Shown here piece after piece: positions 5,780 through 21,426 of a stretch of 64,000 nt of DNA. Numbering within the stretch: the stretch's first letter is position 1; every line of letters begins with the position of its first letter. The stretch lies in the NCBI RefSeq assembly GCF_030013595.1, contig NZ_CP122768.1. The stretch is one strand, 5' to 3'. A program made the position numbers and the translations under genes. The notes below the pieces were generated by a model, which saw nothing but the letters and a program-made list of their open reading frames with translations, was not told the DNA's origin and did no database searches. Source of the stretch: Escherichia coli. GTDB taxonomy: Bacteria; Pseudomonadota; Gammaproteobacteria; Enterobacterales; Enterobacteriaceae.

Positions 5780-6037
5780 TTACAGCTGATCAATATTGAT
5801 CACGCTCCAATATGCTGGCGAGAAAAGGACTTGCCTGAAGGGCAATATCCAGCAGATAAAGCCCCCGAATAACGTGATTACGTGCGATCCTGGCAAGATG
5901 AAAATGATAACCAGTAGCACGATAATAACGATAAGCCAGAAAATCCATTGATCAAAAATGAATATCGATGTTTTTTGCTTTTTCTTATTAGTAATGCAAA
6001 AATGGCTCATATTGTTTTTGTTATGCAGATACATCAA
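5780..6037 (-). CDS. Hypothetical small membrane protein (about 77-85 aa; basic N-terminus followed by one or two hydrophobic helices)
   Basis: Only ORF in the 0.84-kb ychF-ycgV spacer; predicted TM stretch LIVIIVLLVIIFILP...; AT-rich; no recognised family. Start codon uncertain (TTG at 6037 or internal ATG). Confidence 0.25.
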   Translation of the reverse strand: MMYLHNKNNMSHFCITNKKKQKTSIFIFDQWIFWLIVIIVLLVIIFILPGSHVITLFGGFICWILPFRQVLFSPAYWSVINIDQL

Positions 6038-9345: not shown

Positions 9346-11265
9346 TCATACCCGGCGCTTAAACTGCCCTGCATCAATGCCATGTTGCTTCATTTTCCGC
9401 CACAGCGTAGTGCGGCCGATTCCAAGTAAAGCCGACATTTCCTGAATGCGACCGCCTGTGACCTGGGCTGCGTTAATAATTGCCTCTTTTTCAACTTCCG
9501 CAAATGACAGACTGGTGGAAAGGCGGGTGGCGCTGACATCATCTGTCGCCTGCTCGGTAAACAGATGTTCAGGTAAATCACTGACGCGAATGCGCCCGTT
9601 ATCACTACTCAGAGCAAGATTCTCGATGACGCTGTAAATTTCAAAATCGTTGCCTGGCCATGCACAAGAAACCAGGCGAGCGAGGGCATCGTCGTCAATT
9701 TTCAGACGCGTAGAGAAGCGTTTTTCAAGACTGCGTAATTTGTTATTCACCAGCGCCGGAATGCTGCCACGCCGCATACGCAGAGGCGGGATGGTAATTT
9801 CAAATGCATGCAGCGCGTAATACAGCTGGCGACTAAAGCGATTTTGTTCCACCAGCATTGCCAGGTCCGCGGTCGTTGTGGCAATCACTTTGACATCAAT
9901 GGGTATTAAACGCCGCGCATCCAGTCGCGTGATAACACCCTGCTTGATAACCTGAAGCAAAGCAGACTGTAACTCCACCGCCAGATATTCAATCTTTTCA
10001 AGAAACAGCGTGCCGCCGTGCGCCAGTTCCAGCCGACTCAGACGGCCATTTTCATTATCCGTGCGATCGCCACCAATAAATTCTTCCGCCAGCGCCGCAT
10101 CACCATATAACTCACAATTGACGGCAATATAAGGCCCCGCTGCACGCTCGCTTTCATTATGAATTGCCTGACTTAGCAGTGCCTTGCCCACGCCCTCTTC
10201 TCCACAAAGCAGGACAGGAAAGCTACTACGCGCCGCCTGGCGACCAAAATGAATCAAGCGGCGGGTTTGCGGATCGTCCTGTGGCATATGAGCGAAAGTA
10301 TGGCTGACTTTTCCTAATTGACTGGTCATTAACTGCCGCATCTGTTCCACAGGATGGAGCAACAAAATAAAGCTGGTTCCCTGCGTTTCTATTATCGGTT
10401 TAAGGGTTATCACCGCATCAATAAACTGGTGCTGGCTTTCAAAGGTTGCTTCTACGTGTTTGAGCGGATGTGCCTGTTTTATTGCTTGTTGCAATACGGC
10501 GGGTAACGTTAAGAGTTCAGTGATTGCCCTTCCCTGACTTGCCGTCGCGTCAAGGCGCAAGGCCCGCGCCGCCTGGGCGTTGATAAATTGCAAATTACCC
10601 TGCTCGTCCCAGCTAATCACGCCATCATCCATACTTTCTAACAGGGCATTAAGTTGATTTAAATGACGGTTAGTTTCAGCGAGCAAACTGTCCGTCAGCA
10701 GTAAATTACCGACCTCGCGGGCGATTGCTAACGTCAACGGCAAATCAGCTGCGGTAGTTTGCTCAACCGGACACGCCAGCGCTATTGTTCCCGTCAATCG
10801 GCCCTTGCTGTCAAACAACGGCGTTGCACAAAAGGCCCAGTTCCAGAGTGCCTGTTTGAAATGTTGATCGGCCATCGTTTTCACGGCCTGACCAGAGATA
10901 GCCGCTAACGATAGCGCACAAGTACCAATAATTCCCTCGGCGCAATACGTGCCGTCATTGAATCCCAGTGTACTTAGTTGCTGCAAGGTTTGCGGATCGC
11001 CATTACGGCTGAGAATGCAGGCGGTTTCATCGAGGATAAACAACGCACACTCTCGCGGTGCCATATATTCCCAGGCATCTTCCAGCGCAGCCTGCCCGAG
11101 CGTCAGCATCGCTTTCTTACGCCGATAAATAGACGCAAATGTCACGCCCTGGGCCTGGTGTGGTACGTTCCATGTCTCCCGTTTCATCAGCTTATTGCAT
11201 CTCTCCCAGGAGGTTGCAATTAAGGGAGATATGCCCCGACCATCGTTGTTAAAAGCGCCACTCAT
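9346..11265 (-). CDS. dhaR: Dihydroxyacetone-kinase operon transcriptional regulator, 639 aa (GAF/PAS, AAA+-like, C-terminal HTH)
   Basis: ORF 9346..11274 (-); product from MSGAFNNDGRGISPLIATSWERCNKLMKRETWNVPHQ... matches recalled DhaR; divergent from dhaKLM. Confidence 0.9.
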   Translation of the reverse strand: MSGAFNNDGRGISPLIATSWERCNKLMKRETWNVPHQAQGVTFASIYRRKKAMLTLGQAALEDAWEYMAPRECALFILDETACILSRNGDPQTLQQLSTLGFNDGTYCAEGIIGTCALSLAAISGQAVKTMADQHFKQALWNWAFCATPLFDSKGRLTGTIALACPVEQTTAADLPLTLAIAREVGNLLLTDSLLAETNRHLNQLNALLESMDDGVISWDEQGNLQFINAQAARALRLDATASQGRAITELLTLPAVLQQAIKQAHPLKHVEATFESQHQFIDAVITLKPIIETQGTSFILLLHPVEQMRQLMTSQLGKVSHTFAHMPQDDPQTRRLIHFGRQAARSSFPVLLCGEEGVGKALLSQAIHNESERAAGPYIAVNCELYGDAALAEEFIGGDRTDNENGRLSRLELAHGGTLFLEKIEYLAVELQSALLQVIKQGVITRLDARRLIPIDVKVIATTTADLAMLVEQNRFSRQLYYALHAFEITIPPLRMRRGSIPALVNNKLRSLEKRFSTRLKIDDDALARLVSCAWPGNDFEIYSVIENLALSSDNGRIRVSDLPEHLFTEQATDDVSATRLSTSLSFAEVEKEAIINAAQVTGGRIQEMSALLGIGRTTLWRKMKQHGIDAGQFKRRV

Positions 11266-11492
11266 ATCCCGCATCCCTTATGACAAAAGGTGTTCCGGCT
11301 CGCAATTTTAAGTATTAATACACGTAAAAGTTTCAATATGGAACATTCATTAAAGCATATGTTTCACTATGAAACATAATTTGGGCTAATTTTCTTTTCC
11401 CTTGCCTGATGCACAATGGATTCATCGGCAGTCAGTGGTCGCCGTGTCGTTGAACATCATCCATGCCCTACCGTAATTGCTGGAGCAAAATA

Positions 11493-12563
11493 ATGAAAAA
11501 ATTGATCAATGATGTGCAAGACGTACTGGACGAACAACTGGCAGGACTAGCGAAAGCGCATCCATCGCTGACACTGCATCAGGATCCGGTGTATGTCACC
11601 CGAGCTGATGCCCCCGTGGCAGGAAAAGTCGCCCTGCTGTCGGGTAGCGGTAGCGGACACGAGCCGATGCACTGCGGTTATATCGGTCAGGGGATGCTTT
11701 CGGGGGCCTGTCCGGGCGAAATTTTCACCTCACCGACGCCCGATAAAATCTTTGAATGCGCCATGCAAATTGATGGCGGCGAAGGTGTACTGTTGATTAT
11801 CAAAAATTACACCGGCGATATTCTTAACTTCGAAACAGCAACCGAGTTACTGCACGATAGCGGCGTAAAAGTGACCACTGTGGTCATTGATGACGACGTT
11901 GCAGTAAAAGACAGTCTTTATACCGCCGGGCGGCGCGGCGTTGCCAACACCGTATTAATTGAAAAACTCGTAGGCGCAGCGGCGGAGCGTGGCGACTCAC
12001 TGGACGCCTGTGCGGAACTGGGGCGTAAGTTGAATAATCAAGGCCACTCAATAGGTATTGCTCTCGGTGCCTGTACCGTTCCTGCCGCGGGCAAACCTTC
12101 TTTTACCCTGGCGGACAATGAGATGGAGTTTGGCGTCGGCATTCATGGTGAGCCAGGTATTGACCGCCGTCCCTTCTCTTCCCTTGATCAAACCGTCGAT
12201 GAAATGTTCGACACCCTGCTGGAAAATGGCTCATACCATCGCACTTTGCGTTTCTGGGATTATCAACAAGGCAGCTGGCAGGAAGAATCACAAACCAAAC
12301 AACCGCTCCAGTCTGGCGATCGGGTGATTGCGCTGGTTAACAATCTTGGCGCAACTCCGCTTTCTGAGCTGTACGGCGTCTATAACCGCCTGACCACACG
12401 TTGCCAGCAAGCGGGATTGACTATCGAGCGTAATTTAATTGGCGCGTACTGCACCTCACTGGATATGACCGGTTTCTCAATCACCTTACTGAAAGTTGAT
12501 GACGAAACGCTGGCACTCTGGGACGCCCCGGTCCACACCCCGGCCCTTAACTGGGGTAAATAA
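11493..12563 (+). CDS. dhaK: Dihydroxyacetone kinase, dihydroxyacetone-binding subunit, 356 aa
   Basis: MKKLINDVQDVLDEQLAGLAKAHPSLTLHQDPVYVTRAD... within ORF 11463..12563; start set at the canonical MKKLIN. Confidence 0.9.
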   Translation: MKKLINDVQDVLDEQLAGLAKAHPSLTLHQDPVYVTRADAPVAGKVALLSGSGSGHEPMHCGYIGQGMLSGACPGEIFTSPTPDKIFECAMQIDGGEGVLLIIKNYTGDILNFETATELLHDSGVKVTTVVIDDDVAVKDSLYTAGRRGVANTVLIEKLVGAAAERGDSLDACAELGRKLNNQGHSIGIALGACTVPAAGKPSFTLADNEMEFGVGIHGEPGIDRRPFSSLDQTVDEMFDTLLENGSYHRTLRFWDYQQGSWQEESQTKQPLQSGDRVIALVNNLGATPLSELYGVYNRLTTRCQQAGLTIERNLIGAYCTSLDMTGFSITLLKVDDETLALWDAPVHTPALNWGK

Positions 12564-12573
12564 GGAGATAGCA

Positions 12574-13206
12574 ATGTCACTGAGCAGAACTCAAATTGTT
12601 AATTGGCTCACTCGTTGTGGCGATATTTTCAGCACCGAGAGCGAGTATCTTACCGGACTGGATCGCGAAATTGGCGACGCTGACCACGGGCTAAATATGA
12701 ACCGAGGTTTTAGCAAAGTGGTGGAAAAACTCCCTGCTATCGCAGATAAAGATATCGGTTTCATTCTCAAGAATACCGGCATGACGCTACTTTCCAGCGT
12801 CGGAGGTGCCAGTGGTCCGCTGTTCGGTACCTTCTTTATCCGCGCCGCACAGGCGACCCAGGCACGGCAAAGCCTGACGCTGGAAGAGCTTTATCAGATG
12901 TTCCGCGATGGCGCGGACGGCGTAATCAGTCGCGGGAAAGCCGAACCTGGCGATAAAACCATGTGTGATGTGTGGGTGCCGGTGGTGGAATCGTTACGTC
13001 AGTCCTGCGAGCAAAATCTCTCTGTTCCGGCGGCGCTCGACGCTGCCAGTAGCATCGCCGAATCCGCTGCACAAAGTACGATTACGATGCAAGCCCGCAA
13101 AGGCCGCGCCAGTTATCTCGGTGAACGCAGTATTGGTCACCAGGATCCCGGCGCGACCTCGGTGATGTTTATGATGAAAATGTTGGCGTTAGCCGCAAAA
13201 GAGTAA
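12574..13206 (+). CDS. dhaL: Dihydroxyacetone kinase, ADP-binding subunit, 210 aa
   Basis: MSLSRTQIVNWLTRCGDIFSTESEYLTGLDREIGDADHG... within ORF 12496..13206. Confidence 0.9.
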   Translation: MSLSRTQIVNWLTRCGDIFSTESEYLTGLDREIGDADHGLNMNRGFSKVVEKLPAIADKDIGFILKNTGMTLLSSVGGASGPLFGTFFIRAAQATQARQSLTLEELYQMFRDGADGVISRGKAEPGDKTMCDVWVPVVESLRQSCEQNLSVPAALDAASSIAESAAQSTITMQARKGRASYLGERSIGHQDPGATSVMFMMKMLALAAKE

Positions 13207-13216
13207 GGAATTGGTG

Positions 13217-14635
13217 ATGGTAAACCTGGTCATAGTTTCACATAGCAGCCGACTGGGAGAAGGTGTCGGTGAATTAGCCCGTCAGATGTTAATGGGTGAT
13301 AGTTGTAAAATCGCCATTGCCGCGGGAATTGACGATCCACAAAATCCCATTGGTACCGATGCCGTCAAAGTGATGGAGGCCATCGAATCTGTTGCCGATA
13401 CCGACCATGTGCTGGTCATGATGGATATGGGTAGCGCATTATTGAGTGCTGAAACTGCGCTGGAATTGCTGGCTCCCGAGATCGCCGCAAAAGTACGTTT
13501 GTGTGCTGCACCGTTGGTCGAAGGTACACTGGCAGCAACGGTCAGCGCGGCCTCGGGGGCGGAGATCGACAAAGTTATCTTTGACGCCATGCATGCGCTG
13601 GAAGCCAAACGTGAACAACTGGGTTTACCCTCCTCCGACACTGAAATCTCTGACACATGTCCTCCGTACGATGAAGAAGCCCGTTCTCTGGCGGTGGTCA
13701 TTAAAAACCGTAACGGCCTGCATGTACGTCCGGCCTCCCGGCTGGTTTATACCTTATCGACATTTAATGCCGATATGTTGCTGGAGAAAAACGGCAAATG
13801 CGTCACACCGGAGAGTATTAACCAGATTGCGTTACTACAAGTTCGCTATAACGATACGCTGCGCCTGATTGCGAAAGGGCCAGAAGCTGAAGAGGCACTG
13901 ATCGCTTTCCGTCAGCTGGCTGAAGATAACTTTGGTGAAACGGAGGAAGTTGCTCCACCTATTCTGCGTCCCGTTCCGCCTGTTTCGGGTAAAGCCTTTT
14001 ATTATCAACCGGTTTTATGTACGGTACAGGCAAAATCAACCCTGACCGTGGAAGAAGAACAAGAACGATTACGCCAGGCCATTGACTTCACGTTATTAGA
14101 TCTGATGACGTTAACAGCGAAAGCAGAAGCCAGCGGGCTTGACGATATTGCCGCAATCTTTTCTGGTCACCATACACTGTTAGATGATCCGGAACTACTG
14201 GCGGCGGCAAGCGAACTCCTTCAGCATGAACATTGCACGGCAGAATATGCCTGGCAGCAAGTTCTTAAAGAACTTAGCCAGCAATACCAGCAACTGGATG
14301 ATGAATATCTACAGGCTCGCTATATTGATGTGGACGATCTTCTGCATCGCACCCTGGTCCACCTGACCCAAACGAAAGAAGAACTCCCGCAGTTTAACTC
14401 GCCAACTATTCTACTGGCGGAGAACATCTATCCCTCCACAATACTGCAACTGGATCCGGCGGTTGTAAAAGGTATCTGCCTTAGCGCCGGAAGTCCGCTA
14501 TCCCACAGCGCCCTGATCGCCCGTGAACTGGGGATTGGCTGGATTTGCCAGCAAGGTGAGAAACTGTATGCGATACAACCAGAAGAAACGCTAACGCTGG
14601 ACGTTAAAACGCAACGTTTCAGCCGTCAGGGTTAA
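13217..14635 (+). CDS. dhaM: Dihydroxyacetone kinase phosphotransfer subunit (multiphosphoryl PTS protein: EIIA-like, HPr-like, EI-like), 472 aa
   Basis: MVNLVIVSHSSRLGEGVGELARQMLM... within ORF 13211..14635; HPr-like segment NRNGLHVRPASRLV present. Confidence 0.9.
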   Translation: MVNLVIVSHSSRLGEGVGELARQMLMGDSCKIAIAAGIDDPQNPIGTDAVKVMEAIESVADTDHVLVMMDMGSALLSAETALELLAPEIAAKVRLCAAPLVEGTLAATVSAASGAEIDKVIFDAMHALEAKREQLGLPSSDTEISDTCPPYDEEARSLAVVIKNRNGLHVRPASRLVYTLSTFNADMLLEKNGKCVTPESINQIALLQVRYNDTLRLIAKGPEAEEALIAFRQLAEDNFGETEEVAPPILRPVPPVSGKAFYYQPVLCTVQAKSTLTVEEEQERLRQAIDFTLLDLMTLTAKAEASGLDDIAAIFSGHHTLLDDPELLAAASELLQHEHCTAEYAWQQVLKELSQQYQQLDDEYLQARYIDVDDLLHRTLVHLTQTKEELPQFNSPTILLAENIYPSTILQLDPAVVKGICLSAGSPLSHSALIARELGIGWICQQGEKLYAIQPEETLTLDVKTQRFSRQG

Positions 14636-14646
14636 ACCACCGTTCG

Positions 14647-14670
14647 GATGGCATCGTTCTGATGCCATCC
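14647..14670 (+). terminator. Hairpin (ggatggcatc ... gatgccatcc) downstream of dhaM; possible terminator
   Basis: Perfect 10-bp inverted repeat seen 12 nt after the dhaM stop; weak U-tract. Confidence 0.4.
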
Positions 14671-14954
14671 GGCTATTTACTCTGCACTAATGTTTTTTAA
14701 CTATCTGTTATATTTTTCACCAATTTATGATGATTTTTCTTCGCTAATCGCGAACCCAACGCCGCTGACTGGCTAACAAACAGACGTTATTTGATCACTC
14801 TATTTCGCCGTTATTTATCCCTTTAATTCCCTTTTCTAAAATGCCTGACCGTTCGCAGAATGAGATTTCGATCATGCAGCTAGTGCGATCCTGAACTAAG
14901 GTTTTCTGATACTTGAATACCGTTTTATTCGGTTTCGCCAAAGGAGAATGATTG

Positions 14955-16652
14955 ATGAAATCCCCCGCAGCTTCTCGCCCGCTAAAAATGGCGTTAATTC
15001 CAGCCTGCATTTTTTTGTGTTTCGCTGCGCTATCGGTGCAGGCAGAAGAAACACCGGTAACGCCACAGCCGCCTGATATTTTATTAGGGCCGCTGTTTAA
15101 TGATGTGCAAAACGCCAAACTTTTTCCGGACCAAAAAACCTTTGCCGATGCCGTGCCGAACAGCGATCCGTTGATGATCCTTGCTGATTATCGGATGCAG
15201 CAAAACCAGAGCGGATTTGATCTGCGCCATTTCGTTAACGTCAATTTCACCCTGCCGAAAGAGGGCGAGAAATATGTTCCGCCAGAGGGGCAATCACTAC
15301 GCGAACATATTGACGGACTTTGGCCGGTATTAACGCGTTCTACCGAAAATACCGAAAAATGGGATTCTCTGTTACCGCTGCCGGAACCTTATGTCGTGCC
15401 GGGCGGACGTTTTCGCGAGGTATATTACTGGGACAGTTACTTCACCATGTTAGGGCTTGCCGAAAGCGGTCACTGGGATAAAGTCGCGGATATGGTAGCC
15501 AATTTTGCTCATGAAATAGACACTTACGGGCATATTCCCAACGGCAACCGCAGTTACTATTTAAGCCGCTCGCAACCGCCCTTCTTTGCCCTGATGGTAG
15601 AGTTACTGGTGCAGCATGAAGGCGATGCCGCGTTGAAGCAATACCTGCCGCAAATGCAAAAAGAATATGCTTACTGGATGGACGGTGTTGAAAACCTGCA
15701 AGCCGGACAACAGGAAAAACGCGTTGTAAAACTTCAGGATGGTACCCTTCTCAACCGCTACTGGGACGATCGCGATACGCCACGACCAGAGTCATGGGTG
15801 GAAGATATTGCCACCGCCAAAAGCAATCCGAATCGACCTGCCACTGAAATTTACCGCGACCTGCGCTCTGCCGCTGCGTCTGGCTGGGATTTCAGCTCGC
15901 GCTGGATGGACAATCCGCAGCAGTTAAATACCTTACGCACCACCAGCATCGTACCGGTCGATCTGAACAGCCTGATGTTTAAAATGGAAAAAATCCTCGC
16001 CCGCGCCAGCAAAGCTTCCGGAGATAACGCGATGGCAAACCAGTACGAAACGCTGGCGAATGCCCGTCAAAAAGGGATCGAAAAATACCTGTGGAACGAT
16101 CAACAAGGCTGGTATGCCGATTACGACCTGAAAAGTCATAAAGTGCGCAATCAGTTAACCGCTGCCGCCCTGTTCCCGCTGTACGTCAATGCGGCAGCGA
16201 AAGATCGCGCCAACAAAATGGCGACGGCGACGAAAACACATCTGCTGCAACCAGGCGGCCTGAACACCACGTCGGTGAAAAGTGGACAGCAATGGGATGC
16301 GCCAAATGGCTGGGCTCCCCTGCAATGGGTGGCGACAGAAGGGTTGCAAAACTACGGGCAGAACGAGGTGGCGATGGACATTAGCTGGCACTTCCTGACC
16401 AATGTTCAGCACACTTATGACCGGGAGAAGAAGCTGGTCGAGAAATATGATGTCAGCACCACCGGAACAGGGGGCGGCGGTGGCGAATATCCATTACAGG
16501 ATGGCTTTGGCTGGACCAATGGCGTGACGCTGAAAATGCTGGATTTGATCTGCCCGAAAGAGCAACCGTGTGACAATGTTCCGGCGACGCGTCCACTCAG
16601 TGAATCAACAACACAGCCGGTAAAACAAAAAGAGGCGGAACCTACGCCTTAA
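14955..16652 (+). CDS. treA: Periplasmic trehalase, 565 aa
   Basis: [63 protein letters not shown]...; signal peptide plus GH37 trehalase, matching recalled TreA. Confidence 0.9.
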
Positions 16653-16666
16653 CTTTGCTGTATATC

Positions 16667-16709
16667 GAGCAATGCCATTATGTGCATAAAATTGGCATTG
16701 CTCTTTTTT
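16667..16709 (+). terminator. Rho-independent terminator after treA (11-bp stem gagcaatgcca / tggcattgctc followed by T6)
   Basis: Hairpin plus U-tract seen directly 15 nt after the treA stop. Confidence 0.6.
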
Positions 16710-16934
16710 CGCCACGAAATGCCCCCCATTCTACGGTCTATGCCTTTATTTTCTTTTATCAGAGAAGATTTTAATTTTATTTTATCAATTTGTTAATCAT
16801 TACACCTCTATTTATATTTTTCGCCACTCCGCCATTCTCCCTGACAATTTTCTTGTGGAACAAAGTGTTATTTAAGCAACAAGCAAATCATTCTGTCTCT
16901 TTAGACAAATTTTGACATCAAACATGATTTTTTT

Positions 16935-16958
16935 CGATATATATGTAAATATATAGCG
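16935..16958. promoter_or_regulatory. ModE-type operator candidate: CGATATATA-tgtaaa-TATATAGCG, 25-48 bp upstream of the start codon of the ABC binding-protein gene
   Basis: Near-perfect inverted repeat seen directly; fits the ModE consensus as I recall it (CGnTATATA-N6-TATATAnCG). The downstream operon contains a ModD-like gene. Confidence 0.5.
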
Positions 16959-16982
16959 GTTTTTATTATCAGGATATAACTT

Positions 16983-18005
16983 ATGTCACTAACCAGACGG
17001 AGGTTTACACAGATTCTTGCGTCGACATTGTTCCTGCATCATCTGCCGTCCTTTGCACAATCAGTCAAATTCTGGGCCTCACTGACGCTTCCCGAAGCCC
17101 AAAACATTACACGCATCGTCAGCGCAGGCGCGCCCGCCGATTTACTATTGCTGGCTGTCGCGCCAGAAAAAATGGTCGGTTTTTCCTCTTTTGATTTTGC
17201 CCGTCAGGCATTAATTCCATTGCCAGAGCACATTCGCCAGTTCCCCAGGCTGGGACGACTCGCCGGGCGCGCCAGCACACTCTCGCTGGAAGGGCTTATG
17301 GCGTTACATCCCGATTTGGTCGTTGATTGCGGCAATACGGATGAAACCTGGATCTCCCAGGCACGGCAGGTTAGCGAACAGACACAAATACCCTGGTTAT
17401 TGCTTAACGGGAAACTGGAACAATCAGCAGAACAGTTAACAACGCTTGGCAAAACGTTAGGCGAAGAGCACCGCACCGCAGAACAAGCCAATCTCGCCAG
17501 CCGCTTCGTTGGTGAAGCTCAGGCATTCGCCACCTCACCCGCCGCTAACCTCAGCTTTTATGCTGCGCGCGGTCCTCGAGGGCTGGAAACGGGCTTACAG
17601 GGTTCGTTGCATACCGAGGCGGCGGAATTATTAGGTTTGCACAACGTCGCGCAAATAGCCGATCGCCACGGTCTGACACAGGTTTCCATGGAAAATCTCC
17701 TGCGCTGGCAGCCGGATATTATTCTGGTTCAGGAGGCCGTTACTGCAGATTTTATTCGTCGTGATCCTCTCTGGCAGGGCGTGAAAGCGGTTGCGGAACA
17801 ACGCATCTTATTTTTAAGTGGCCTGCCCTTTGGCTGGCTGGATGCCCCGCCGGGAATCAACCGTCTTCTGGGATTACGCAGACTTCACGCCTGGCTGGAT
17901 CCCGCCATCAATCGCCAGTTTAAAAGTGACATGCAGCATTACGCCCAACTGTTCTGGCATTGCCCATTAAGTGACGCCGACTATCAAAAATTGGTGGCGA
18001 GCTAA
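16983..18005 (+). CDS. ABC-transporter periplasmic substrate-binding protein, cluster A/class III (FecB/FhuD/BtuF-like), 340 aa, Tat-like signal peptide
   Basis: N-terminus MSLTRRRFTQILASTLFLHHLPSFAQS has a twin-arginine-like motif T-R-R-x-F and an AxA-like cleavage site; size and composition typical of iron-complex/cobalamin binding proteins; SD agga 8 nt upstream. Confidence 0.8.
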   Translation: MSLTRRRFTQILASTLFLHHLPSFAQSVKFWASLTLPEAQNITRIVSAGAPADLLLLAVAPEKMVGFSSFDFARQALIPLPEHIRQFPRLGRLAGRASTLSLEGLMALHPDLVVDCGNTDETWISQARQVSEQTQIPWLLLNGKLEQSAEQLTTLGKTLGEEHRTAEQANLASRFVGEAQAFATSPAANLSFYAARGPRGLETGLQGSLHTEAAELLGLHNVAQIADRHGLTQVSMENLLRWQPDIILVQEAVTADFIRRDPLWQGVKAVAEQRILFLSGLPFGWLDAPPGINRLLGLRRLHAWLDPAINRQFKSDMQHYAQLFWHCPLSDADYQKLVAS

Positions 18006-18985
18006 TGAGAACCGTAAACGGATGTATTTTGCTGCTGGCAGCTATCAGTATCACTTTTGCCGCCGTAAGTGGGGCTTATCATCTCGATATACAGCAACTG
18101 CTGGCGCTCATTCTGCGTCAAGAAAATGTTCCTGTGCAGGAACAAATTGTCTTCTGGCAAATCCGCGTGCCGCGTATTCTTGCTGCGCTGTTTCTGGGCG
18201 CGGCGCTGGCAGGGGCCGGAACCACCTATCAGGGAATGTTCCGTAATCCCTTAGTGTCACCGGATATTTTAGGCGTCTCCGCCGGTGCCGGACTTGGTGC
18301 CTGCGCGGCAATCCTGTGGGGATTATCCATTGTTTACATCCAGCTGTACGCATTTTGCGGCGGGCTGATGGTGGTCGCGGGCGTCTGGTTGATTACGCGT
18401 CGGGTGACCCGCCACGATCCGATCTTAACCCTGGTGCTGGTAGGCATTGCGTTAGGAACGTTGTGCGGAGCGGGGATATCGCTAATAAAAACGCTGGCCG
18501 ATCCTTACACCCAGTTACCGTCAATTACCTTCTGGTTGCTGGGGGGGCTGTCCACCGTGACCTTACGCGATCTCTGCTATGCTGCACCGATCATTCTCAT
18601 AGGCTCCTTGCCCCTGTTTTTTCTCCGCTGGCGCATGAATTTACTCACGCTTTCCGACGACGAAGCCCGTTCGCTGGGACTGAACGTGACACGTCTGCGC
18701 TTTGGATTAATTGTCTGCGCCACACTAATCACCGCCAGCACGGTAGCAATAGCGGGCATAATTGGTTGGGTCGGCCTGGTCGTTCCGCACATTGCCCGCT
18801 TGTTGACCGGTCATAACCATCAGCAGCTGTTGCCCATGGCAATGTGTACTGGCGCGATTCTGCTCCTGCTTACCGATACGCTGGCACGCAGCATTGGAAC
18901 AACAGAAATCCCACTTGGCATTCTGACCGCTTTTGTTGGTGCACCGTTTTTCCTGTTTTTGTTGTTACGCGGAGGTCGCCAGTGA
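18005..18985 (+). CDS. ABC-transporter permease, FecCD family, 326 aa
   Basis: Multi-pass hydrophobic protein with FecCD-like segment GAALAGAGTTYQGMFRNPLVSPDILGVSAGAGLG; start ATG overlaps the upstream stop (taATG). Confidence 0.8.
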   Translation: MRTVNGCILLLAAISITFAAVSGAYHLDIQQLLALILRQENVPVQEQIVFWQIRVPRILAALFLGAALAGAGTTYQGMFRNPLVSPDILGVSAGAGLGACAAILWGLSIVYIQLYAFCGGLMVVAGVWLITRRVTRHDPILTLVLVGIALGTLCGAGISLIKTLADPYTQLPSITFWLLGGLSTVTLRDLCYAAPIILIGSLPLFFLRWRMNLLTLSDDEARSLGLNVTRLRFGLIVCATLITASTVAIAGIIGWVGLVVPHIARLLTGHNHQQLLPMAMCTGAILLLLTDTLARSIGTTEIPLGILTAFVGAPFFLFLLLRGGRQ

Positions 18986-19740
18986 CTTTGCTTGCCGTCC
19001 GTCATGCGTCTCTGGGTTACTCCCGCCATCCGGTGCTACGCGACGTGTCCTTCACCCTGTCGCAAGGAACAATTTGTTGTCTGTTAGGAGCCAATGGTTG
19101 CGGCAAAACCACACTCATGCGCTCCATTCTTGGCGTTATACCGTTATTAAAAGGCGAGATCTTACTGGATAGCCTCCCTGTGCAGACACTCAGCCATCGC
19201 CAGCGCGCGCAGGCTATTGCCTGGGTGCCGCAGGCGCACGACGGCATTTTTGCTTTTAGTGTGCTGGATATGGTGTTGATGGGCCTGGCCCCCACCATAG
19301 GCGCTTTTTCCGTTCCCGGTAAGCAAGAACGCCTGAAAGCAACGGAGCAACTGGAAAAGCTGGGCATTTTGCATCTGGCGACACGACGCTGGAATACGCT
19401 TAGCGGCGGTGAACGTCAGCTGGCTTTAATCGCTCGTGCACTCGTCCAGCAACCGCGCTTGTTATTACTGGATGAGCCTGCCTCCAGCCTCGATTTCGGT
19501 CATCAGATCCAACTACTGGACACGCTGGCGCAGCTCAAAAATAACGGCATGACAATGTTAATGTCGACTCATCATCCGCTCCATGCCAACGCCATTGCCG
19601 ACAGCATTATCCAGGTAGAGCCAGATGGACGAGTAACACAAGGCTTACCGACCGAACAGTTAACAACGAACAAACTGGCTGCCCTGTACCGGGTTTCTGC
19701 CGACCAGATTCACCATCACCTCTCTGCAATTAAGCACTAA
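18982..19740 (+). CDS. ABC-transporter ATP-binding protein, 252 aa (GTG start overlapping the permease stop)
   Basis: Walker A GANGCGKTT, ABC signature LSGGERQ, Walker B LLLLDEP; SD ggagg 6 nt upstream of the GTG at 18982. Confidence 0.8.
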   Translation: MTLLAVRHASLGYSRHPVLRDVSFTLSQGTICCLLGANGCGKTTLMRSILGVIPLLKGEILLDSLPVQTLSHRQRAQAIAWVPQAHDGIFAFSVLDMVLMGLAPTIGAFSVPGKQERLKATEQLEKLGILHLATRRWNTLSGGERQLALIARALVQQPRLLLLDEPASSLDFGHQIQLLDTLAQLKNNGMTMLMSTHHPLHANAIADSIIQVEPDGRVTQGLPTEQLTTNKLAALYRVSADQIHHHLSAIKH

Positions 19741-19749
19741 GGAAAAATC

Positions 19750-20550
19750 ATGCTCATTGACGATATTGATTTTGCAGACCTTTACCTTCAGCAACTCAGG
19801 CTGGCCCATCGCACAGAAAAAACGCCGGATCACTGGGATCAACGGGCGGAAAATTGCGCCTCGCCTACGGACAGCTACCTGCAACAACTGATCGCTAAAA
19901 TTGACCTACAAGGCGCTCAGACCTTATTCGATATGGGCTGCGGACCGGGTACCGTATCGCTGGCGCTGGCTGACAAACTCACGACGATTTATGGCGTTGA
20001 TTACAGTCAGGGGATGCTGAAGGTTGCCGCCCGTCGCGCCGCCGCGCTAAAGGCAGACAATGTCCACTGGATCCAGCGCGCCTGGGAAGAGGACTGGAGT
20101 GACCTGCCACGCTGCGATATTGCCGTGGCTTCCCGCTCCACTCTGGTGGCTGATATGCGCCAGGCAATGAGCAAACTGAATAATCAGGCACGGCTTCGCG
20201 TCTATACGACTCATCTGGTCAGCACCTCGTTCGTCTCTCCAGCCATTCAGCGGGCGGCTGGTCGGGAAGTGATCGAATTACCCAACTATATCTTTGCGCT
20301 CAACGTCCTGTATCAGATGGGAATTTATGCTCACGTTGATTTTATCCGTGGACAAAATTGCCAACAGGATAACAGCACCTGGGAACGTTTTGAGCAGAAC
20401 GTCAGCTGGAGTCTGGGCGCGCTTAACGACGATGAGCGTGAGCGGTTATATCGCTGGTATCAACAACAAGATGCTCGTGCCCTCGCCCCTGCCAGCCGCG
20501 ACTGGGCGCTCATCTGGTGGGATAGCGTACCGCAAGAGGCACTGCGATGA
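19750..20550 (+). CDS. Class I SAM-dependent methyltransferase, 266 aa
   Basis: Motif I LFDMGCGPGTVS (GxGxG) followed by an acidic residue in VDYS; embedded in the transporter operon; SD aagga upstream. Confidence 0.7.
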   Translation: MLIDDIDFADLYLQQLRLAHRTEKTPDHWDQRAENCASPTDSYLQQLIAKIDLQGAQTLFDMGCGPGTVSLALADKLTTIYGVDYSQGMLKVAARRAAALKADNVHWIQRAWEEDWSDLPRCDIAVASRSTLVADMRQAMSKLNNQARLRVYTTHLVSTSFVSPAIQRAAGREVIELPNYIFALNVLYQMGIYAHVDFIRGQNCQQDNSTWERFEQNVSWSLGALNDDERERLYRWYQQQDARALAPASRDWALIWWDSVPQEALR

Positions 20551-21401
20551 TTTTCCTTTCTCAGGCACAAATCGATGCGTTACTTCTGGAAGATATCCAG
20601 GGCGGTGACCTGACCACGCGAGCATTAAATATTGGACACCAGCATGGCTATATAGAGTTTTTTCACCGTCAGGGCGGCTGCGTCAGCGGAATTTCTGTCG
20701 CGTGTAAGATGTTAACTACGCTGGGATTAACTATTGATGACGCGGTCAGCGACGGTTCACAAGCGAACGCGGGTCAGCGGCTAATCCGTGCGCAGGGTAA
20801 TGCCGCAGCACTTCATCAGGGATGGAAGGCAGTCCAGAATGTGCTGGAGTGGAGTTGCGGTGTTTCTGATTATCTCGCTCAAATGCTGGCGTTACTTCGT
20901 GAACGTTACCCTGATGGCAATATCGCCTGCACCCGAAAAGCAATTCCGGGCACCCGCTTACTGGCCTCGCAGGCAATTCTGGCTGCCGGAGGACTGATTC
21001 ATCGTGCCGGATGTGCGGAAACCATATTATTGTTTGCCAACCACCGCCATTTTCTTCATGACAATCAGGACTGGTCAGGCGCAATCAATCAGTTACGTCG
21101 CCACGCACCCGAGAAGAAAATAGTTGTTGAAGCCGACACGCCGAAAGAGGCAATCGCCGCGTTACGCGCGCAACCAGACGTACTTCAGCTCGACAAATTT
21201 AATCCGCAACAGGCAACTGAAATTGCGCAAATAGCACCGTCGCTGGCTCCTCACTGCACGCTGGCTCTGACCGGCGGAATTAATCTGACAACACTCAAAA
21301 ATTACCTCGACTGCGGCATTCGCCTTTTTATTACCTCCGCGCCTTATTACGCGACACCAGCTGACATTAAAGTCAGTCTGCAACCCGCAGCCTCTATTTA
21401 A
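20547..21401 (+). CDS. modD: ModD-like protein (quinolinate/nicotinate-nucleotide pyrophosphorylase fold), 284 aa
   Basis: QPRTase-type motif CTRKAIPGTRLL and overall size typical of ModD; start overlaps the methyltransferase stop (ATGA). Symbol refers to the family, not to a verified orthologue. Confidence 0.65.
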   Translation: MIFLSQAQIDALLLEDIQGGDLTTRALNIGHQHGYIEFFHRQGGCVSGISVACKMLTTLGLTIDDAVSDGSQANAGQRLIRAQGNAAALHQGWKAVQNVLEWSCGVSDYLAQMLALLRERYPDGNIACTRKAIPGTRLLASQAILAAGGLIHRAGCAETILLFANHRHFLHDNQDWSGAINQLRRHAPEKKIVVEADTPKEAIAALRAQPDVLQLDKFNPQQATEIAQIAPSLAPHCTLALTGGINLTTLKNYLDCGIRLFITSAPYYATPADIKVSLQPAASI

Positions 21402-21426
21402 TTCTTTGTTAAACGGAATTTATTCT

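Follow-up and report, generated by a model that had tools for sequence, protein, structure and literature searches.

The modD gene was first described in Rhodobacter capsulatus. In this organism, the ModD protein was found in the proteome of the molybdenum-regulated mop/mod gene cluster (PMC6925177). In Geobacter, the genes are arranged as modE-modD-modABC (PMC2700814, PMC545781), and a ModE site was reported upstream of modDABC (PMC545781, PMC2700814). In Haemophilus influenzae, MolBC-A was shown experimentally to be an ATP-binding cassette (ABC) importer of type II for molybdate and tungstate (PMC4031551, PMC3928620). The corresponding cluster, HI1469-HI1475, contains modA, molCBA, modD, salX, and cysU (PMC3928620), and molB is repressed by molybdate via an "unknown factor" (PMC4031551). 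In Escherichia coli, a cluster named prrA-modD-yc73-fepC was described as O-island 55/S-loop 83 of O157:H7 (ECs1693-1699) and as GR9 in the avian pathogenic E. coli (APEC) strain BEN2908, with a further copy on a pathogenicity island from uropathogenic E. coli (UPEC) (PMC1890555, PMC12928451). It was labeled as "possibly mediating iron uptake" (PMC12928451, PMC1890555). We analyzed this cluster computationally in a 64,000-nucleotide stretch of an E. coli chromosome (contig NZ_CP122768.1), hereafter called the window. The results pointed, with moderate confidence, to a molybdenum uptake operon repressed by ModE, in which a methyltransferase (MT) and ModD would form a molybdenum-handling module.

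The cluster of the literature and the block in the window have identical genes and an identical insertion site between treA and ymgE, which identified them as the same locus. In the window, dhaKLM-treA was located on one flank of the block and ymgE-ycgR-emtA-ldcA-cvrA on the other. The open reading frame (ORF) calls in the treA-ymgE interval gave a block of six genes on the + strand (16983-23397). The gene order was a periplasmic substrate-binding protein (SBP), a permease, an ABC ATPase, MT, ModD, and a TonB-dependent receptor, with junctions of −1, −4, +9, −4, and +25 nt along the operon. The same six genes were annotated by RefSeq in other E. coli. At least 80% of the block was present in 2139 of 5426 complete E. 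coli genomes (~39%), and the strains carrying the island included O157:H7, Nissle 1917, and ATCC 25922. A preliminary description made from the letters of this stretch had placed two overlapping enzyme genes between the ATPase and an outer-membrane receptor. This agreed with our results. The two ORFs (19750-20550 and 20547-21401, + strand) overlapped at an ATGA (20547-20550) and were located between the ATPase gene (18982-19740) and the receptor gene (21427-23397), which is interrupted by a TAG in this strain.

The operator upstream of the operon pointed to molybdenum. A palindrome resembling the ModE operator, CGATATAT-ATGTAAA-TATATAGCG, was located at 16935-16958 (no strand assigned) and ended 24 nt before the start codon of the SBP gene. 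The full site at these positions, CGATATATATGTAAATATATAGCG, agreed with the published ModE operator consensus, ATCGnTATATA-N6-TATATAnCGAT (PMC545781). Sites were scored with a 15-point template, CGnTATAT-N7-TAYATAnCG, and a box was called at a score of at least 13. The window site scored 15/15, and the K-12 modA and moaA operators also scored 15. The K-12 modA operator, CGTTATAT-TGTCGCC-TACATAACG, has its end 20 nt 5' of modA. The site at 16935-16958 was the sole site scoring at least 13 across the 64-kb window. TATATA-N5-8-TATATA was matched in none of 100 shuffles of the window, and shuffling the AT-rich intergenic region 5000 times gave no score above 13. The ModE-like box was the best-conserved block of the intergenic alignment, which covered O157:H7, other E. 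coli phylogroups, E. albertii, and Citrobacter, and its conservation across E. coli was checked on sampled alleles. A megablast search with the promoter as a query matched 521 genomes, and this low count probably resulted from low-complexity masking and the 28-nt word requirement.

In addition, a TTGACA hexamer, a candidate −35 element, was found at 16912-16917 on the + strand, 17-20 nt 5' of the box's left arm. The TTGA part of this hexamer was kept in E. albertii and Citrobacter. The perfect TTGACA just 5' of the box would place the operator over the −10/start region, which is also the arrangement at modA, and a promoter at the operator is suggested. Judged from the sequence, ModE-molybdate most likely represses the operon, which would be turned on at molybdenum scarcity. 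The predicted ModE control of prrA-modD-yc73-fepC would be a new point compared with the literature label of iron uptake. In the literature searched, no paper tied the cluster to ModE or molybdenum, and an earlier mention cannot be excluded.

Other regulators were also considered. A Fur box scan of 16653-16982 gave a best match of 13/19, which was equalled in 205 of 1000 shuffles and was not significant. Fur/iron control was dropped because this match was not above shuffles. Control by a cobalamin or molybdenum cofactor riboswitch was dropped because an Rfam search of 10000-30000 (E ≤ 1) gave no riboswitch match. Over the full window, the highest Fur-box-like score was that of GAAAATGATAACCAGTAGC (5900-5918, 15/19), which was located far from the operon.

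These results bear on the published label, by which the operon would be a system for uptake of iron as a siderophore, haem, or ferric chelate and modD and yc73 would be unrelated passengers. The label itself, the RefSeq product names in the block ("iron ABC transporter..." and "TonB-dependent siderophore receptor"), and generic matches to siderophore, haem, and B12 systems agreed with such a system. However, the upstream region had no Fur box and carried a perfect and conserved ModE-type operator. No cutoff of an iron-system family was reached by the block proteins in NCBIfam, the closest solved transporter was the molybdate importer MolBC, and the six-gene order with the enzymes inside was kept across genera. 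The iron annotation is without specific support, and we regard an iron system as extremely improbable. The cluster is a putative iron system in the literature, whereas the analysis of the window pointed to molybdenum, and the metal assignment of the named cluster is probably wrong. The predicted cargo is most likely molybdenum or tungsten, as an oxyanion or a bulkier complex, rather than iron.

The comparison of the transporter with solved structures was consistent with this cargo. The FecCD/BtuC-type permease (18005-18985, + strand) was MolB-like. Its best solved match was HI1471 (MolB, 2NQ2) with 222.8 bits and an E value of 6e-65, compared with 175 bits for FhuB, 168 for HmuU, and 146 for BtuC. 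The ABC ATPase (18982-19740, + strand) had 252 aa and no TOBE domain, and its gene overlapped the permease gene at a GTGA. HI1470 (MolC) was its second-best solved match with 126 bits and the best among bacterial importer ATPases. The periplasmic SBP (16983-18005, + strand) was of class III and the Peripla_BP_2 type, the latter taken from Pfam assignments precomputed for its Proteus and Gibbsiella orthologues. Its NCBIfam matches were weak and were all to FecB/FepB/IsdE-type cluster A SBP models. The best solved relative of the SBP was the uncharacterised 4PAG (92 bits). The operon resembles MolBC-A in that no solved proteins are nearer to its products than the homodimeric BtuC-fold permease and the TOBE-less ATPase of that system, the SBP is of class III, and modD is in the same neighborhood. 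It differs from MolBC-A in that a TonB-dependent receptor and MT are added, ModD is placed inside the transporter operon, and the SBP resembles MolA only marginally. A ModE-like box with a score of 13 was observed 23 nt upstream of the MolA-like SBP gene of a MolABC-type operon in Haemophilus sp. FF7 and Necropsobacter (L043, 222-245; L044, 225-248). This box is a candidate for the "unknown factor" in the repression of molB by molybdate.

The TonB-dependent receptor gene, "prrA" (21427-23397, + strand), was interrupted by an amber codon in the window. An in-frame TAG at 21919-21921 split the gene, and this codon is CAG in other strains. The plug and barrel halves matched generic models of TonB-dependent receptors and were separated by the amber codon, and the window contained no single intact frame with a plug and a 22-strand barrel. 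Among 2147 E. coli records, none had the 61-mer around the TAG. The receptor gene was intact, with 1971 nt and 656 aa, in five sampled strains, O157:H7 and ATCC 25922 among them. In the case of the closest relative (HCP5S3_I2), the receptor copy was frameshifted instead of carrying the amber codon. A widespread truncation of the receptor had been suspected from the RefSeq name "plug domain-containing protein", and it was rejected because the sampled genes were intact and the amber codon was private. Downstream of the receptor gene, an inverted repeat, GCGGATAGCG-N10-CGCTATCCGC, was located at 23405-23434 (no strand assigned), before the convergent ymgE. The terminator scan made no call at this repeat, and there was no T-run on the + strand. 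The repeat is probably the end of the operon or the ymgE terminator.

The ModD gene (20547-21401, + strand) encoded a protein of 284 aa with a quinolinate phosphoribosyltransferase (QPRTase) fold. For the NCBIfam family TIGR01334, with a cutoff of 178.85, the match reached 501.4 bits and covered model positions 1-277 of 277. In contrast, the match to the nadC model TIGR00078 was 135.7 bits, under the cutoff of 198.4. The domains QRPTase_N and QRPTase_C (PF02749, PF01729) were precomputed on ModD homologues. The AlphaFold model of ModD had a pLDDT of 96.6 and gave TM scores of 0.86-0.89 and a root-mean-square deviation of ~2 Å to solved QPRTases at ~24% identity. No solved structure of the family itself was found. 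The preliminary description had assigned a QPRTase-like fold with no known function to ModD, and the structural comparison confirmed this assignment. It had also proposed a comparison of the active site with QPRTase and NadC, which showed a shared fold with kept catalytic residues and a changed substrate pocket. Arg139, Lys140, His161, Arg162, Glu201, and Asp222 of the Mycobacterium tuberculosis enzyme corresponded to R130, K131, H152, R153, E195, and D216 of ModD. These six residues were invariant or near-invariant in 50 diverse ModDs. However, the position of Lys172 was Phe163 in ModD, near-invariant across the 50 ModDs, and the position of Arg105 was Lys94, with Lys throughout the family. 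The complete quinolinate-binding set (Arg105', Arg139, Lys140, His161, Arg162, and Lys172) was therefore absent from ModD.

The machinery of ModD for binding phosphoribosyl pyrophosphate (PRPP) and for catalysis, which is that of type II phosphoribosyltransferases, looks intact, while one ligand of the quinolinate carboxylate is lost. Since the catalytic residues were kept and the quinolinate pocket was altered, ModD is probably a phosphoribosyltransferase that acts on a substrate other than quinolinate. ModD shares with NadC (EC 2.4.2.19) the two-domain fold and the equivalents of Arg139, Lys140, His161, Arg162, Glu201, and Asp222. In contrast to NadC, ModD was under the NadC family cutoff, and its genomic context was molybdenum transport and not NAD synthesis. 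In one locus only, that of Ferrimonas kyonanensis (L040, 9248-9802), a gene of the histidine-phosphatase family was located directly upstream of modD. It was weakly similar to the alpha-ribazole phosphatase CobC (105.9 bits; cutoff 162.9). If ModD makes a ribotide, this phosphatase would suit the step from ribotide to riboside.

ModD was also found in fusion proteins. In a protein library at 50% identity, a ModC/WtpC-like TOBE-less ATPase was fused to ModD (P0143 and P0148), and ModD was fused to NifQ (P0195). A truncated ModD with a di-Mop part (P0168) may be an assembly or frameshift artefact. Fusions to ATPases would agree with a ModD whose main role is that of a regulatory or non-catalytic partner of molybdate-type ATPases, with a phosphate/PRPP pocket that accepts or senses cytoplasmic molybdate in place of the missing TOBE domain, and with MT as a lineage-specific add-on. 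Short TOBE-less ModC/WtpC-like ATPases are directly followed by ModD or fused to it, and the E. coli ATPase is also without TOBE. In R. capsulatus, a mutation in ModD is said to shift the molybdenum requirement by only ~4-fold, as Wang et al. reportedly found in 1993 and as the TIGR01334 description reportedly states, which also counts for a regulatory role. However, the PRPP-binding and catalytic residues are near-invariant in 50 members, suggesting catalysis, and the tight and conserved coupling to MT argues for a two-step enzymatic pathway. We consider a regulatory ModD to be unlikely.

The methyltransferase gene, "yc73" (19750-20550, + strand), encoded a class I S-adenosylmethionine (SAM)-dependent enzyme of 266 aa, as indicated by Pfam, motif I, and the AlphaFold model. 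The Pfam matches were Methyltransf_31/25/12/11. Motif I, DMGCGPG (residues 61-67), and D84, the acidic residue closing strand 2, were invariant in the family alignment, in which DxGxGxG, D84, ASRS, and several Trp/Tyr residues were invariant. The AlphaFold model had a pLDDT of 90 and a Rossmann-type fold. In Foldseek, it gave TM scores of ~0.5 to assorted small-molecule N-, S-, C-, and O-methyltransferases. No NCBIfam cutoff was reached, and the top model was the corrinoid-associated CpaM with 43.5 bits against a cutoff of 180. The identity as CpaM was set aside because the score was far under the cutoff. The protein had 266 aa in the window and in the closest relative, and 270 aa in most E. 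coli and in other genera. A 12-nt in-frame deletion near codon 38 removes KMAE-like residues after RAE.

SAM-dependent methylation is a known route of metalloid detoxification. It is conceivable that MT, with ModD, guards by methylation or derivatisation against toxic oxyanions or metalloids (tungstate, tellurite, selenite, or arsenate) that enter through the derepressed molybdate route. The operon structure, by which the enzymes would be co-expressed only when the transporter is on, and a weak NCBIfam match of MT to an ArsM-like model (E 1e-4) are in line with this role. However, the ArsM match was generic and far below the cutoff. In addition, the conserved Cys triad typical of ArsM was absent, with only Cys64 of motif I conserved at 90% or more, and detoxification would leave the partner with the phosphoribosyltransferase fold without a role. 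We consider it very unlikely.

The coupling of MT and ModD was examined across species. The TGA of MT and the ATG of ModD form the ATGA stop/start overlap (20547-20550, + strand), and AAGAGG, a Shine-Dalgarno-like sequence, is located 5' of the ModD start. For the comparison, 80 ModD loci, each from a different species, were retrieved from 12 closer ModD sequences via one peptide pattern. Of the pattern hits, those that matched the E. coli protein best in tblastn were taken. This is not a random sample, and the fractions given here describe that family neighborhood and not all ModDs. The loci were annotated with the window proteins, K-12 ModA/B/C/E, the NifQ domain, and the Mop domain. MT was directly upstream of ModD in 37 of the 80 loci. 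The overlap was ATGA or GTGA in 38 of 39 pair-bearing loci, from Escherichia to Sulfuricurvum, and it is not due to chance since it was kept so widely. Together with the junctions of −4 to +25 nt, this upheld the earlier proposal that the two genes are translationally coupled and co-transcribed with the transporter. The co-occurrence analysis that had been suggested with it showed a conserved module and not independent housekeeping genes in an unrelated context.

The same six-gene order was found in Escherichia, Citrobacter, Enterobacter, Proteus, Morganella, Providencia, and Gibbsiella, with different chromosomal neighborhoods. In the orthologous operons of the first six of these genera, boxes with scores of 13-15 were located upstream of the first-gene ORF. 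The distance from box to ORF was 10-36 nt in most cases, and the box overlapped the called ORF start in E. albertii and Enterobacter. A gap of ~100-270 nt separated ModD from the receptor in Proteus, Morganella, and Providencia (L011-L035) and contained a second ModE-like box with a score of 14-15, such as those at 10933-10956 in L022 and 6077-6100 in L030. In the case of E. coli, this gap was 25 nt with no second box. The receptor gene of Proteus, Morganella, and Providencia thus seems to have its own molybdenum-controlled promoter.

Outside this order, the enzymes were found in other molybdenum contexts. In Edwardsiella, the MT-ModD pair was alone, with no transporter, and had its own ModE-like box. 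In Sulfuricurvum and a metagenome-assembled genome (MAG) of Campylobacterales, the pair was located within or next to genes for molybdate transport, in many cases downstream of a TonB-dependent receptor, and the order in locus L080 was ModE, ModA, MT, ModD, ModB, and ModC. Yersinia alsatica, Pasteurellaceae, Photobacterium, Gilliamella, and spirochaete MAGs had a ModA-like protein, ModB, a short TOBE-less ATPase, and ModD, and the Yersinia SBP was above the modA cutoff. In Chromatiaceae, Chlorobium, and Desulfurobacterium, modD was in or beside modABC/modE. In Pasteurellaceae, Yersinia, Photobacterium, Chromatiaceae, and Chlorobium, ModD followed ordinary ABC transporters of the molybdate type, without MT. 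Among described systems, modABCD of R. capsulatus and modE-modDABC of G. sulfurreducens have a ModD of the same TIGR01334 family and are under molybdenum-responsive control. The two described systems differ from the E. coli operon in that the transporter is the type I oxyanion transporter ModABC, without a receptor and without MT.

Among the 80 loci, a type II permease was in the cluster in 28 and a receptor was in the locus in 33. A homologue of ModA/B/C/E, Mop, or NifQ was present in 38, and NifQ was within 8 kb in three loci. A ModE box with a score of at least 13 was in or near the cluster in 35 loci, and either a molybdenum gene or a box was present in 66. Over 1.48 Mb, the box scores were bimodal, with 419 sites at 11, 37 at 12, 26 at 13, 45 at 14, and 16 at 15. 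In the 1.45-Mb survey of the 80 loci, 58 of 85 boxes with a score of at least 13 were in or beside ModD clusters.

Several loci had further features. In Glaesserella australis (L052, 2132-12902), the genes were rearranged, with MT, the ATPase, and the receptor on one strand. Two permease/SBP sets together with ModD were distributed over both strands, and the divergent intergenic regions contained three ModE-like boxes. A conserved gene of ~130 aa was found just downstream of modD in Sulfuricurvum-type loci (L067, L068, L076, L077, L080, and L081), and this gene between modD and modB (e.g., L067, 10846-11247) had no NCBIfam match. A 3.2-kb contig labeled as a Collinsella sp. MAG (L005) encoded a ModD 100% identical to that of the window. 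Its flanks had partial ATPase, MT, and receptor ORFs with scores near the self-match level, and its placement in the actinobacterium Collinsella is almost certainly a binning contaminant.

These contexts bear on what the enzyme pair does. The preliminary description had proposed that the pair processes the imported substrate by release, modification, or detoxification of a ligand. The coupled enzyme pair in a transport operon stood, and the tie to this transporter or to a ligand imported through TonB did not. A pair bound to one imported ligand would not be expected alone in Edwardsiella or inside modA-MT-modD-modB-modC in Sulfuricurvum. Given its occurrence alone and in modABC clusters, and the links of ModD to ModC-like ATPases and to NifQ, the pair is probably not a processor of one particular imported ligand. 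Molybdenum was the common denominator, and the processing of an imported ligand is therefore only one of several possible roles.

A specific form of this role is an importer for an organic metal chelate, such as a molybdenum-catecholate "molybdophore", another metallophore, or a pyridine-dicarboxylate complex. In such a system, MT and ModD would modify the ligand in the cytoplasm to release the metal or detoxify the carrier. Bulky chelates normally enter through a TonB-dependent receptor with a class III SBP and a type II ABC importer, and the SBP is far from MolA. The MT and ModD genes are coupled and co-transcribed, ModD keeps a carboxylate- and PRPP-binding site, and MT resembles small-molecule methyltransferases. 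However, the pair occurs without a transporter in Edwardsiella and in the oxyanion-type modABC clusters of Sulfuricurvum. In many taxa, ModABC-like transporters are followed by ModD without MT, fusions of ModD to ModC-like ATPases and to NifQ exist, and the operon has no genes for the biosynthesis or export of a chelator. A chelate importer is possible, and we consider it the weaker explanation.

A ModE-repressed molybdenum operon with MT and ModD as a molybdenum-handling module remained the favored explanation, and several points weigh against it. The promoter scan gave no canonical −10/−35 pair around the operator, and the number of sites was not above that of shuffles. The match of the SBP to MolA (HI1472) was weak, with 34 bits over residues 214-286 (73 residues), which was too weak for binding residues to be compared. 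This meant that the ligand may not be the free oxyanion, and either the oxyanion or a larger molybdenum complex is possible. MolBC-A of H. influenzae has a low affinity and would be a poor fit for a scavenger induced by starvation. Since the receptor gene is broken, the source strain may lack a working system, or the TAG may be a sequence error. A clue to the substrate of MT was sought by NCBIfam, a PDB sequence search, and Foldseek, and only generic matches were obtained. In Shewanella avicenniae (L092, 8001-8816), a 62%-identical MT was alone, without a ModD in its vicinity, beside an insertion sequence transposase, and ~2.5 kb from this MT was a Nitro_FeMo-Co (PF02579) gene. Neither a molybdenum gene nor a box was present in 14 of the 80 ModD loci, and the selection of these loci by best match counts in the same direction. 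Finally, the literature searched contained no report of ModE binding, molybdenum-dependent expression, or molybdenum transport for the operon.

Based on the above results, we suggest that molybdenum scarcity would lift the repression of the six-gene operon by ModE-molybdate. The Mol-type (type II ABC) importer and the outer-membrane TonB-dependent receptor would then bring in molybdenum or tungsten. MT and ModD would act as a conserved cytoplasmic module of the molybdenum regulon, which also travels with ModABC or alone, and would make or modify a small molecule for intracellular handling of molybdenum. A more specific proposal is that ModE-controlled, TonB-dependent acquisition of molybdenum or tungsten exists in Enterobacterales and, independently, in Campylobacterota (Sulfuricurvum), where ModD and MT would make or process a ribosylated and/or methylated heterocyclic carboxylate that carries or releases molybdenum in the cytoplasm. 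We put this proposal forward as a speculative and rather doubtful one. If it is true, it would give ModD a biochemical function 30 years after its naming and would establish active outer-membrane transport of molybdenum.

In metal uptake, a receptor and an ABC importer are known to be controlled by a metal-specific repressor, as in ZnuD-ZnuABC (Zur) and in the nickel and copper receptors. The E. coli operon would follow the same control logic as these pairs, with ModE as the predicted metal sensor. No TonB-dependent route or receptor for molybdenum was described in the literature searched, and the operon would exemplify TonB-dependent uptake under a molybdenum sensor. In addition, the ModE-like boxes may explain the "unknown factor" of molB repression in H. 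influenzae. E. coli, Proteus, and Edwardsiella would be genetically tractable settings for the function of ModD and MT. If ModE control holds, a widespread island of E. coli, present in ~39% of complete genomes, has been filed under the wrong metal. Anaerobic respiration that depends on molybdoenzymes drives enterobacterial blooms in the inflamed gut, and the poisoning of molybdoenzymes with tungstate is under exploration as a therapy. A second, receptor-assisted entry of molybdenum or tungsten in pathogenic and probiotic strains would bear on this tungstate approach.

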